Source: a virus
Taxonomy: Duplodnaviria; Caudoviricetes
IMG/VR virus record: IMGVR_UViG_3300012041_000059
Coordinates: 1 to 25,906 of that record
DNA length: 25,906 nucleotides
Direction: 5' to 3' (one strand)
Part shown: piece by piece, positions 3,375 to 25,906 of the stretch
Numbering within the stretch: the stretch's first letter is position 1
Layout: the number at the start of each line of letters is the position of its first letter
Position numbers and translations under genes: made by a program
The notes under the pieces: model-generated
What the model was told of the DNA's origin: nothing
What the model saw: the letters and a program-made list of their open reading frames with translations, nothing else
Databases searched by the model: none

Positions 3375-4475
3375 GTGGCCAAGTTTCGCGTCGTCGTCGC
3401 GCGCGGCGCTGCGATCGTCTGGCCCAGCGAGGGTGAGGGTCCACCGACCACGGCGAAACCCACCAAGCGTTTCGAGGTACGCACCAACCGCGGCTACCTG
3501 AGGCTGCCGCAGCAAGCGCGGCGTCGCGCCGCCGGCAACCCGATCGGCATCGCGGTCGAGACGGACACCGCGTTCGCCGTGGGCGCCGGCGCGCCGGCCG
3601 GCATCGCGCTCGAGCTCGACACCGCACTCGCGCTCGGCGTGAGTGCGGTGCTGGCCACCGAAACCGACACCGCCATCGCGCTGACGCCGCGCGCGGTCGG
3701 GCAGGTGGGTTTCGCGCTCGAGACCGATACCGCCATCGCCCTCACCGGCGTGCAGCGCCTGCCCGCCGGCATGGCGGTGGAAACCGACAGCGCGCAGGCG
3801 CTGCTGCCAGGGCAGGCCGGCAAGCCGATGCCGGTGCACACCCGCAACCGGCCGGGCCGCGGCCCGTTCAGCACCGGGCGGATGTACATCCGCAATATCC
3901 CGGTGCTGGCCCCGGGCAACATCGTCATCGGGTTCATCGGTCTCGCGCAAGAGTCCGACACCGCGGTGGCGCCCAACGGCGTGCAGCTGCGCGGCACGGG
4001 GCTGGCCAGCGAGCTCGACGCGGCGTTCGCCCTCACCGGCTCCGCGCCCGGCACCGTGGGCGTGGCGAGCGAGCACGACACCGCGCTGCAGCTCGCAGCG
4101 GTGCAGGTGCTGGCCACCGGGCAGGCCGACGAGGCCGACGAGGCCCTCACGCTGGCCAGCGCGCGGCCGGTGGATGTGGCGGTCGAGGTCGACACCGCCT
4201 TCGCGCTGTACACGGCCGTCGGCCTGGCCGAAGAGCACGACAGCGCCTTCGCGCTCGACGCGTTCGTCGTCGACGCGGTGGGCCTGGCGCTGGAGCTCGA
4301 CACCGCGCTGCAGCTGTTCCCGTCGCAGGGCTCGGCGCCGGCCGGCATGGCCGAAGAGATCGACGAGGCGCTGGCGCTCGATTGCGTGATGTACGCGGCG
4401 CGCGCGCGGCGCAGCGGCAAGCGCGGCGCCGGTGTGGGGCGCTCGCCGAACGTGAGCAGATTGAAGAGGGGCTAG
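3375..4475 (+). CDS. Repeat-rich putative fibre/virion protein, 366 aa
   Basis: GTG start after an AAGGGG SD; 13 copies of G-x-A-x-E-x-D-x-A-x-x-L; Arg-rich termini. Confidence 0.75.
   Translation: MAKFRVVVARGAAIVWPSEGEGPPTTAKPTKRFEVRTNRGYLRLPQQARRRAAGNPIGIAVETDTAFAVGAGAPAGIALELDTALALGVSAVLATETDTAIALTPRAVGQVGFALETDTAIALTGVQRLPAGMAVETDSAQALLPGQAGKPMPVHTRNRPGRGPFSTGRMYIRNIPVLAPGNIVIGFIGLAQESDTAVAPNGVQLRGTGLASELDAAFALTGSAPGTVGVASEHDTALQLAAVQVLATGQADEADEALTLASARPVDVAVEVDTAFALYTAVGLAEEHDSAFALDAFVVDAVGLALELDTALQLFPSQGSAPAGMAEEIDEALALDCVMYAARARRSGKRGAGVGRSPNVSRLKRG
3546..4379 (+). repeat. Degenerate coding repeat array (13 x GxAxExDxAxxL)
   Basis: Examples: GIAVETDTAFAV, GIALELDTALAL, GFALETDTAIAL, GLASELDAAFAL, GLALELDTALQL, GMAEEIDEALAL. 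The array is interrupted once by a Pro/Arg-rich segment. Confidence 0.85.
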
Positions 4476-23222: not shown

Positions 23223-24254
23223 ATGCCGTCGGTCATCAAGGTGAGGGATAAGTGGCGCGCCCAGGTGCGCCGCAAGGGGCACGCGCCGCAGTGTCGCACC
23301 TTCGCCAAGAAGTCCCAAGCGGACAAGTGGGCGCGCGAGCTGGAGGCGGCGATCGACGCCGGCACGCCGGCGCAGGCGCTGACGGCCCACGGACGCGGGC
23401 TCACGGTGGCCGGCGTCGACCACGAGTACCGCAAGCTGCGCGATGGCACGGCGCGGCCGATCGGCGACGCGAGCAATGAGCACTACATGCTGCGCCACCT
23501 GGCGCGGCTGCTGGGCGACCGCGCTGCGGCCTCACTGGTGCCGGCCGACCTGGTGGGCTACTGCAAGGCGCGGCGCGACGAGGGCGCGGGCCCGTACACG
23601 TTGAATATGGAGATGAGCAAGCTGGGCACGGCGCTGCGCTACGTGGCCGCGGCGCTGCACCTGCAGCTGCCGTCGGTGGTGGCCGACGCGCGGCCGCTGC
23701 TGGCGCACCTGGGGCTCATCGGTGGGGGTGGGCGGCGCGAGCGGCGGCCCACCGAGGACGAGCTCACCGCGATCGTGGCGCACCTGACGGCCAAGCGCGG
23801 GCAGCTCTATGCCGACGTGGTGCTGTTTGCGGTGGCCACGGCGATGCGGCGCTCGGAGATCGCGCGCATTCGGTGGCCGGACGTCGACGAGGCCAAGCGC
23901 CTGGTGCTGGTGCGCGGCCGCAAAGACCCGCGGCGCAAGGACAACGACCAGTGGGTGCCGTTGCTACCGGCTGCGTGGGAGGTGCTACAGGAGCAGCCGC
24001 GCGAGGCGGGCGCAGTGCGGATTTTTCCGGTGGACCTGTCGACGGTGTCGAAGTATTTCACCTGGGCGTGCAGGGAGCTGGGGATACCGGACCTGCATTT
24101 TCACGACCTGCGGCACGAGGGCACTAGCCGGCTGTTTGAAGAGGGTTTCGGCATCCAGCAGGTGGCGCTGGTGACGGGGCACCGCGACTGGCGGCACCTG
24201 CGGCGCTACACGAACCTCAGGCCGGAGGATGTGCACCGGGGGCCGGCGGGTTAG
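23223..24254 (+). CDS. int: Tyrosine recombinase / phage integrase, 343 aa
   Basis: N-terminal arm-binding WRAQVRRKG; catalytic R (MRRSEI), K (RKDP), HDLRH, TGH, Y (RRYTN). Confidence 0.96.
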   Translation: MPSVIKVRDKWRAQVRRKGHAPQCRTFAKKSQADKWARELEAAIDAGTPAQALTAHGRGLTVAGVDHEYRKLRDGTARPIGDASNEHYMLRHLARLLGDRAAASLVPADLVGYCKARRDEGAGPYTLNMEMSKLGTALRYVAAALHLQLPSVVADARPLLAHLGLIGGGGRRERRPTEDELTAIVAHLTAKRGQLYADVVLFAVATAMRRSEIARIRWPDVDEAKRLVLVRGRKDPRRKDNDQWVPLLPAAWEVLQEQPREAGAVRIFPVDLSTVSKYFTWACRELGIPDLHFHDLRHEGTSRLFEEGFGIQQVALVTGHRDWRHLRRYTNLRPEDVHRGPAG

Positions 24255-24882
24255 GCTCGGCCTGGGGTGGTGCCCCGATAGGTGCAGCAGCGCCGCAGAT
24301 GCAATCATCGTCATTGTTGCCCCCGCCTACGCCAAGACACGCGAGCGAGTGCTTGGGCGCAACCTGTGGTGCCTGTGCCCCCCTATCCCACTGAGCGAGC
24401 GCATCTTCTCCGTGGGCATGAAGGAACGTGCGAATGTCCGGCGTGGCAATCTCCCCACGTATCATGGCGACGTGAACCAAGGTCGGGTCTTGCAGCTGGC
24501 GCATGATGTCGGCCTGTGGTGCCTGTGGGGATGCGGCGAGCGCATCAATTGCGGCGTGGAGTGCGGCCAGTGTTTCTGGGCGTTCTTGCGAGCATCGGTA
24601 AATCTTATTCGCCAGCCGCTTCGCCTCATCGGGCGCCACCTGTAGCGGTGGTCCCCACGCCCAGCAGCCTTCTGCATGGGTGGTTTGGGGTGGGGCCGAT
24701 AGCGCGGCTTCAGCGGCTGCCCAGGCAAGAGGCTTGCGCCTGGCATAGTCAGCGCGCATGTCTTCCCATTTGGCCATGCTCATGCCGACTAGACCATCAG
24801 GGTGCTTGGCTTCTTCAATCAGGAATTTCAACCTCTTGAGCGCCACCAACTCAGCGAGCGCTGCGCGTACTGAATCACTCAT
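24217..24882 (-). CDS. Modular early-region hypothetical protein (Ea22/Ead-like mosaic), about 221 aa
   Basis: Start reassigned to ATG 24882 (GGGGGAG SD); short modules joined by APPQ/QAPQ linkers; 3' end overlaps int by 38 nt. Confidence 0.65.
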   Translation of the reverse strand: MSDSVRAALAELVALKRLKFLIEEAKHPDGLVGMSMAKWEDMRADYARRKPLAWAAAEAALSAPPQTTHAEGCWAWGPPLQVAPDEAKRLANKIYRCSQERPETLAALHAAIDALAASPQAPQADIMRQLQDPTLVHVAMIRGEIATPDIRTFLHAHGEDALAQWDRGAQAPQVAPKHSLACLGVGGGNNDDDCICGAAAPIGAPPQAEPNPPAPGAHPPA

Positions 24883-24898
24883 GACGACTCCCCCAGGG

Positions 24899-25132
24899 TT
24901 ACGTGGCCTCGGCCGACGCCTGATCCCGCAGCGCCTCGAGGCGCTCGGCGACATCGCGCGAGTCGGCGAAGCGGCGGCCGCCGTCGAGGTAGGTGCGCAC
25001 GCCGAGCGTGCCGTCGCCCACCTTGTTATTCACGGTGCTGGCGCCGAGTTTGAGCACGTCGGCCAGCTCTTTCATGTTGAGCCGCGGGCCGTAGCGCTCG
25101 AGCAGCCAGGCTTCTTTGAGAAGGGCGCTCAC
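24899..25132 (-). CDS. Excisionase-like winged-HTH DNA-binding protein, 77 aa
   Basis: GTG 25132 overlaps the upstream stop; LLERYGPRLNMKELADVLKLGASTVNNKV; near int, convergent with it. Confidence 0.75.
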   Translation of the reverse strand: MSALLKEAWLLERYGPRLNMKELADVLKLGASTVNNKVGDGTLGVRTYLDGGRRFADSRDVAERLEALRDQASAEAT

Positions 25133-25647
25133 GGGTACACCTTGGCCAGGTCCGCGCGCACGGCCTTGCCGCGCCGGCGCAGCACGTTGGAGAATCTGCG
25201 GACGGCTCGGGCGCGACCTTCGTAGCTCTTGTGGTAGTAGTTCTGGACGCCGTGGTGGAAGAGCTGGCCCCACGCGGACGAGCCATCGGACTCGTACTGC
25301 TCGCTGCTCCAGTACCACGCGGCTTCGAACTTGCGCTTGAGGTTGGCGTACAGCAGCGCCTGCTCTTGCCGCGTGGGCAGCTCGCCGCCGATCTCGGCCG
25401 CCCAGGCCTTGGCCTGCTCCCAGGTGACGCCGTCGTTCTGGCCGGGCACCAGCACCAGGTGGTGGCTGAAGTTGCCGTCGGCGTCGAGCACGATGCCGGC
25501 GTAGCGCTCGCCGGGGGCGAGCGCGATCTCGGCCTCGTCGATGACGTAGGCCACCGGCGCGCCGCGTTGCGCGGCTTCGAGGTCGGCGATCATCCGGGCG
25601 AGCTTGGTCTGCTCGGCCTTCACGTGTTCGAGTGTGATGGTGGGCAT
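25129..25647 (-). CDS. DUF1566/Lcl (C-type-lectin-fold) protein, DGR target A, 172 aa, with a foreign 20-aa C-terminal tail
   Basis: GERYAGI, TWEQAKAWA..GGELPTRQEQALLYANLK, WYWSS, AW.Q.F..G.Q....KS.E.RARAVRR. Confidence 0.88.
   Translation of the reverse strand: MPTITLEHVKAEQTKLARMIADLEAAQRGAPVAYVIDEAEIALAPGERYAGIVLDADGNFSHHLVLVPGQNDGVTWEQAKAWAAEIGGELPTRQEQALLYANLKRKFEAAWYWSSEQYESDGSSAWGQLFHHGVQNYYHKSYEGRARAVRRFSNVLRRRGKAVRADLAKVYP
25198..25288 (-). repeat. DGR variable repeat VR-A (91 bp)
   Basis: 78/91 identical to 25704-25794 without gaps; all mismatches are in positions 1-2 of NNC codons; the last 34 bp (coding sense) are identical. Confidence 0.85.
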
Positions 25648-25682
25648 GTGCGCCTCGTTGTGGTGTTAAAGGATCGAAGGAT

Positions 25683-25906
25683 TCAAGAACCGATGGGAAT
25701 CAAGCGGACGGCTCGGGCGCGACCTTCGTAGCTCTTGAGGAGGTCGTACTGGTAGCCGTCGTCGAAGTTCTGGCTCCACGCGAACGAGCCATCGTCTTCG
25801 TGCGGCTCGCACGTCCAGTGCAAGCGAGGCTCGAACTCTCTCTTGAGGTTGGCGTACAGCAGCGCGGCCACGGAGCGCGTGGGCAACTCGGCCTCGAGCT
25901 TGGCGG
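25683..25906 (-). CDS. DUF1566/Lcl protein, DGR target B (5' part outside the window)
   Basis: ELPTRSVAALLYANLK...HWT...AWSQNFDDGYQYDLLKSYEGRARAVRLIP; paralogue of target A. Confidence 0.85.
   Translation of the reverse strand, partial: AKLEAELPTRSVAALLYANLKREFEPRLHWTCEPHEDDGSFAWSQNFDDGYQYDLLKSYEGRARAVRLIPIGS
25704..25794 (-). repeat. DGR variable repeat VR-B (91 bp)
   Basis: Partner of 25198-25288; followed after the stop by ATCCTTCGATCCTTT. Confidence 0.85.

Follow-up and report, generated by a model that had tools for sequence, protein, structure and literature searches.

Two tandem genes at the end of a viral contig, A and B, encode small Lcl/C-type-lectin-like proteins that share a variable repeat (VR), and they raise the question of whether a DGR is at work in this phage or has left only its products. 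The window analysed is the full record, a single contig of 25,906 nt (25.9 kb, approximately 41% complete), and its gene content is that of a temperate phage, including head and tail genes, an endolysin and an integrase. The named hosts of the relatives described below are Rubrivivax, Aquabacterium, Janthinobacterium, Undibacterium, Telluria and other Burkholderiales; therefore, the host of the window phage is probably also a member of the Burkholderiales. A 366-aa open reading frame amid the head and tail genes (3375–4475, plus strand) contains repeats of approximately 18–20 aa (families D1–D3) and is without a PHROG match.

The initial annotation pictured a working diversification system. 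In the window, however, the template, avd and the reverse transcriptase (RT) are gone and the tail of the RT is fused to gene A, which that reading had missed. The repeats of A and B differ only at template adenines and A runs into the end of an RT, so the locus is most likely a deleted two-target DGR. We put at about 0.85 the probability that a two-target phage DGR has lost avd, template and RT and has left A and B as probably frozen, likely cytoplasmic binders. The feature is not an intact DGR, since its three defining parts (RT, template repeat (TR) with its RNA, and avd) were tested for and are absent; it was nevertheless made by one, and is a recently inactivated member of the type found in phage Magia. 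As these parts are deleted, the variation in VR-A and VR-B is historical. The features concerned are the following.

23223..24254, plus strand: tyrosine integrase (Phage_integrase, E = 1.4e-20; phrog_1), convergent with the early operon
24899..25132, minus strand: HTH/excisionase-like (xis-like) gene (weak HTH_17/HTH_24 matches, E about 0.02), with a homologue beside the related integrase in locus L104
25129..25191, minus strand: RT remnant, comprising the final 20 codons of a DGR reverse transcriptase with the stop; junction near 25186–25192
25129..25647, minus strand: gene A, a 152-codon DGR target (N-terminal helix and Lcl_C-like domain) fused in frame to the RT remnant
25198..25288, minus strand: VR-A, with 13 of 16 mismatches to the template of L034/L074 on template adenines
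25668..25684, minus strand: 17-nt element after B, two 8-nt pyrimidine-rich units (PWM score 19.5, the best in the whole window)
25683..25906, minus strand: 3' part of gene B (Lcl/C-type-lectin-like), 73 codons in register with A, the 5' end cut by the contig end
25704..25794, minus strand: VR-B, with 12 of 15 mismatches to the template of L034/L074 on template adenines

The two targets and their variable repeats

Searches with gene A, which has 1127 homologues, gave 37 viral, 18 genome and 46 metagenome loci. The window's own record (L056) and an identical second assembly of it (L057) were set aside, leaving 99 loci. A DGR-type RT motif is present in 56 of these and an AAC-rich template in 59, of which 38 are unique.

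VR-A and VR-B align without gaps over 91 nt at an offset of 506 nt. They differ at 13 positions, eight at codon position 1, five at position 2 and none at position 3, and are identical at the remaining 78. The differences fall in ten codons of gene A (124, 127, 129, 131, 132, 134, 136, 137, 138 and 139), which are the hypervariable codons of related targets. The initial annotation had given the same 13 mismatches in ten codons with none at a third position, and our recount agrees; in the 110 nt directly upstream of the repeats, taken as a control, the 33 mismatches are spread 13/10/10 over codon positions 1/2/3. All 13 differences face A in the nearest real template, that of L034/L074, which has 28 A among its 91 nt (hypergeometric P = 2e-8); at every one of the 13 positions, A is found in 29–38 of the 38 unique templates of relatives. 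Three non-A differences per VR are seen against L034/L074, as expected of a template from another phage.

The proposal that both repeats were written from one DGR template is thus borne out: AAC-rich templates do occur in relatives, and near-identical ones lie beside avd and RT. The template reconstructed earlier from A and B was nearly right, except that at codons 124, 139 and 142, where it gave AAC or ambiguous bases, the majority of the nearest real templates have TAC, CAC, and TAC or TAT, respectively. The window itself holds only the two repeat copies, its own TR being absent.

In relatives the same rule holds over 96 unique TR–VR pairs, where 1048 mismatches lie on template A and 20 elsewhere. 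At Q128 and Q135 the scaffold adenines are nearly always kept, with changes in 0 of 94 and 1 of 96 pairs, respectively, compared with 21–82% for the variable codons; this indicates selection for a protein that folds. The substitutions at template A in these pairs are biased (G 482, T 396, C 170), and the variable codons often encode Tyr, Asp or Gly.

Gene B is 60% identical to residues 84–150 of A. The description of A as a small target of 172 aa has the length right, but this length is not native: the last 20 residues are the RT remnant, and 113 of the 119 other top homologues have 149–157 aa.

Fold and likely role of the targets

Gene A matches Lcl_C (PF07603, formerly DUF1566) with E = 1.5e-5 and 25.7 bits, under the Pfam gathering cut-off of 34.9 bits; four of the ten related targets scanned pass it. 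A profile of A matches the C-terminal domain of Legionella Lcl (8q4e) across the whole domain (E = 1e-5 to 1e-6), and this domain is described as having a C-type-lectin-like fold (PMC11162425). Lcl is a secreted collagen-like adhesin, whereas A has a predicted helix of 22 residues and a linker before the domain. The model of A has a mean pLDDT of 82.5 and an N-terminal helix at residues 6–27. Its Foldseek matches are weak and mostly to C-type lectin domains, the best being the Lcl C-terminal domain (E = 0.24, probability 0.77). In the VR (residues 125–141) the pLDDT is under 50, and it is on this part of the model that a check of the ten variable residues for a single face falls. Fixed and variable residues alternate along the VR in the 96 pairs, an arrangement that would fit a displayed hairpin.

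The genomic position is that of early genes. The initial annotation placed the targets in an early operon beside xis and int, about 9 kb from the tail-tip gene, and this agrees with our measurement: the end of the tail-tip gene is approximately 8.8 kb from gene A, and the xis-like gene lies downstream of A. Genes A and B thus hold the Magia-type early-operon position upstream of xis/int. The cassette neighbours are early genes in all nine annotated loci and in phages Magia and Cruim01, namely repressors, primases, ParB-like proteins, methylases, xis and int, and lysis or tail genes are found only beyond the integrase on the other strand. None of 128 targets carries a lipobox; on a crude hydropathy scale, five of the 128 have a hydrophobic N-terminal window and 12 a hydrophobic 19-mer. 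Many are bare domains of 114–125 aa, and among 11 longer homologues there is no fusion to a tail-fibre or tail domain.

The intracellular binding function suggested in the initial annotation therefore fits the gene position, the small size and the lack of lipoboxes and tail-fibre fusions, and is plausible. With somewhat better than even odds, we suggest that the targets are soluble cytoplasmic binders made early, and that their ten variable residues would have been shaped by selection against a host or competitor protein that kept changing, with counter-defence or host takeover as the most likely use. The same history could instead have served small virion or cell-surface receptor-binding proteins acting in tropism or superinfection exclusion. 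The closest solved relative is indeed a secreted trimeric adhesin domain (the Lcl C-terminal domain), the Magia announcement suggests a change of host range (PMC7883833), and most viral DGR targets are, in the parts of Roux et al. consulted, tail proteins, with non-structural ones also noted (PMC8144416). Nevertheless, we consider a virion or surface role unlikely. The genes lie between the repressor and the integrase, and in Magia the lysis genes are on the other strand; many targets are bare domains, with no tail or lipoprotein fusions; and one homologue, P0127, is fused to a sliding-clamp-like domain, a weak lead.

In P0127, residues 12–225, N-terminal to the target domain, fall near phage clusters, one of which has DNA_pol3_beta_2 in 20% of its members (score 0.94). 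This fusion may hint, again as a weak lead, at a replication-linked role.

A wider proposal is more speculative, and we think it improbable by a fair distance: temperate phages of Burkholderiales might keep an intracellular, antibody-like repertoire against host defence or replication proteins, addressed by a direct repeat, in which good binders would be locked by deletion of the mutator while the RT tail is spared for translation of the next gene. If this were true, the binders of the window would have been locked only recently. The question of the ligand could be tested in those cultured phages and prophages whose cassettes are full-length.

The intact cassette in relatives and a direct repeat behind its targets

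Genes A and B belong to a DGR family that is common in temperate phages of Burkholderiales. The intact layout in relatives consists of two to four small Lcl/C-type-lectin-like targets followed by avd, the RT-15 RNA, the TR and the RT. In L038 the order is target, target, avd, template and RT, with matches to Lcl_C, bAvd/Avd and RVT_1, those to bAvd/Avd being just below the curated cut-offs. The Rfam RNA RT-15 lies between avd and the template in six of the eight related loci scanned. Among phage records, ten carry a target homologue and 11 an RT at 60–80% identity.

RT-15 was recognized as the structured RNA of Magia-type DGRs, 5' of the template and starting at the end of avd (L058 9169–9360, L060 1502–1694 and other full-length loci). 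Weinberg et al. identify RT-10 as an RNA of DGRs and, in the part seen, only speculate on the other RT motifs (PMC5737381). Several relatives contain split genes: targets are broken by frameshifts inside the VR in L024/L046 (near 10654), L031 (near 6992) and L037 (near 1762), and the RT is split in L022 (near 15182). These splits are either DGR-made indels or assembly errors. Proteins P0123, P0124 and P0125 have two target domains per chain; in P0124 and P0125 the first VR seems to end in a frameshift.

The best-known member of this type is in the Burkholderia cenocepacia phage Magia (MT701587), with gp57, gp47, gp46, Avd (gp45) and RT (gp44) forming the DGR (PMC7883833). Gene A is 51% identical to gp46 over residues 3–152, and the RT of Magia is 64% identical to that of L060. 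The window shares with Magia the early-operon position, tandem short lectin-fold targets, and the VR register and ten variable codons; RT-15 before the TR is likewise a feature of the family. The cassette of Magia is full-length, whereas in the window avd, RNA and TR have been lost and the RT is reduced to 20 codons. The Magia announcement reports a DGR with two short targets (genes 47 and 57), offers host range as a guess and mentions neither deletion relics nor a direct repeat (PMC7883833). In Magia, gp46 (L102 8998–9462) is annotated as hypothetical, yet it has a VR, the third in this phage, that matches the Magia template, and of the Magia proteins it is the one closest to A.

A broader likeness is to the category 'd' DGRs (DUF1566/Lcl, CLec2), which, as described in the portions of the surveys consulted, combine AAC-rich templates with short DUF1566 targets that stand alone, several to a template (PMC5758913; PMC3521204). 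The same portions list multi-VR DGRs for Ralstonia, Burkholderia, Collimonas and Pseudogulbenkiania and note RT-truncated DGRs; these Betaproteobacterial systems are likened to the window family by description only. The Bordetella phage BPP-1 (mtd-avd-TR-brt), as far as its accounts were consulted, resembles the intact relatives in its gene order, in changes specific to adenines and in having the VR at the C-terminus of a C-type-lectin-like fold. It differs in having a tail-fibre target and a GC-rich inverted repeat, whereas the window family has early genes and an AT-rich direct repeat; moreover, RT-10 lies between TR and RT in BPP-1, whereas RT-15 precedes the TR in the window family.

This direct repeat is a 17-nt element in which each 8-nt unit ends in TT and which usually starts at the stop codon of the target. 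It does not fold. In a leave-one-locus-out analysis it follows 120 of 125 unique VRs, whereas templates are never followed by it (0 of 42) and its rate in random 55-mers is 1.2%. Of the five VRs without it, four belong to loci where no RT is visible, and one, in the full-length L055, has a weak, below-threshold copy. The element is thus a candidate target-recognition signal on sequence grounds: it may mark the targets and take the place of the GC-rich hairpin of BPP-1, or it may serve translation or termination instead. Wu et al., in the part consulted, report GC-rich inverted repeats after only 34% of DGRs and suggest that recognition may extend downstream of the IMH (PMC5758913). For the approximately two thirds of DGRs without such an inverted repeat in that account (PMC5758913), the 17-nt repeat offers a testable candidate for discrimination between target and template.

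In the window the element is present after B and absent after A. If it does mark targets, B could still be rewritten in trans by a compatible DGR and A probably not. This bears on the possibility that the local cassette is gone while both targets are still diversified by a second DGR, encoded either by phage sequence beyond the record or by a prophage in the same host. At about 41% completeness, the record leaves room for a second cassette elsewhere in phage or host; non-adjacent targets and action in trans are documented in the part of the survey seen (PMC5758913); B retains its element; and one contig of sequencing run X2 carries a related target gene with about 80% likeness. Against this, A lacks an element that follows nearly every related VR, and no TR-like contig at 80% likeness was found in three runs. 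The contigs of the same runs (depth 2–7, with rare alleles dropped in contigs) contain no variant of the window VRs. Continued diversification of both genes in trans is therefore a distinctly improbable reading.

Deletion of the cassette

Each part of the cassette was sought in the window. The record contains no match to the RT catalytic domain (PF00078), and thus no RT gene with SQ and YxDD motifs; the avd of L060 gives no tblastn match; and RT-15 has no match, while in relatives the two loci of the eight without it are the deleted L012 and L063. What is left is the end of the RT. The segment 25129–25191 is the best window match of an RT C-terminal HMM (E = 0.008 over 557 segments), and its PSSM score is 25.6 bits, the next best among 51,694 19-mers being -8.7. 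By tblastn it is 71% identical to RT residues 333–353 of about 356 (E = 1e-4). At the nucleotide level, 47 of 63 positions are identical to the RT end of L060, and the next best of 20,070 places has 34.

The stretch missing between target and RT end (avd, RT-15 RNA, TR and most of the RT) is 1,675–1,698 nt long in nine close relatives, and its median length over 35 relatives is 1,698 nt. Most likely, a deletion of about 1.7 kb removed avd, template and RT in frame and fused the RT tail to A. The template of L060 is followed by letters resembling the junction, so recombination between VR and template together with a short-homology deletion is as possible as a single event.

The junction has support beyond the record, although this support is thin. 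The second assembly, L057, is identical over 1642 of 1642 nt across it, and a contig of run X2 spans 25074–25305 (232 nt) with no differences; the depth of this contig is 2.5, and L057 and runs X1–X3 may belong to one sampling campaign. An assembly chimera, the real phage having an intact cassette, was weighed against these observations. VR and TR repeats do break assembly graphs, and the X1 contig stops at 25202 with 24960–25151 uncovered, which leaves the junction bare in that run. However, the junction lies in unique sequence rather than between repeat copies, it recurs unchanged in L057 and in the X2 contig with over 100 nt on each side, and no RT or TR piece appears there as a loose end. 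We regard a chimera as very improbable.

The suggestion that A and B, being adjacent paralogues, were merely homogenized by recent gene conversion with no DGR history is refuted by the restriction of 13 of 13 differences to template adenines (P about 2e-8), the 0 third-position differences in the repeat against 10 of 33 upstream, and a significant RT remnant exactly where the RT ends in relatives.

Loss of the cassette is recurrent in the family. After removal of 18 duplicates, four loci without a target domain and 28 that end too soon from the 99, 49 loci were evaluable and were classified by hand. Full-length avd, template and RT are found in 40 (L022 with a split RT). Four loci, L012, L058, L063 and L092, have a deletion junction, known from assembled sequence. 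The deletion in L012 runs from the start of avd to the RT tail and that in L092 from the end of avd to the last RT codons (judged by eye, the HMM score not being significant); that in L058 lies inside the RT, and L063 retains an RNA fragment and at most about 12 nt of possible RT. The remaining five loci show no cassette within 2.7–10 kb and no RT remnant; two of them keep the 17-nt element and may represent remote targets. In one protein, P0004, a separate break within the VR has joined the target to an RT tail, and this tail agrees with that of A at 16 of 17 residues.

The RT end is therefore kept in four of five separate deletions (the four loci and P0004). The next gene starts within the last codons of the RT in 31 of the 40 full-length cassettes, in 24 of the 40 with a 4-nt overlap, and in the window the GTG start of the xis-like gene overlaps the stop codon of the RT remnant by 4 nt. 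We infer that the RT end is kept because this stretch carries the ribosome site of the next gene. The retention is in part a matter of ascertainment, since deletions are detected by that very end, and it is not universal, given L063 with its few RT nucleotides and the five loci without a remnant.

These observations suggest the following history. The ancestral cassette would have rewritten both VRs by mutagenic retrohoming until shortly before its loss, as the two are identical at all 78 other positions. The deletion would then have spared the end of the RT because the gene that follows, in the window the xis-like one, has its ribosome site there and starts in overlap with it. In the portions of the category 'd' surveys consulted, inactivation is by insertion, nonsense mutation or frameshift, in contrast to the cassette deletion with an in-frame RT-tail fusion seen here. 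A search of the literature, covering papers apart from their supplements, found none on RT-tail fusion relics or on the 17-nt direct repeat.

DGR surveys anchored on the RT would miss relics such as A and B. Theory, in the part of the preprint seen, expects DGR loss once the environment stops changing, and relics of this type would be direct cases of such loss (bioRxiv 10.64898/2026.02.18.706561). With at least four of 49 evaluable relatives broken by deletion, rates of loss become measurable within one family.

Two observations concern the integrase side of the locus. In the gap between integrase and xis-like gene (24254–24650), the depth of run X1 spikes, and there are loose ends at 24254 and 24262 as well as two joints that leave out 87–88 nt, possibly reflecting an attachment site or strain variants. 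Related integrase (59%) and xis (38%) genes are arranged in the same convergent way at locus L104 (10001–11213), where none of the DGR parts occurs within 10 kb.
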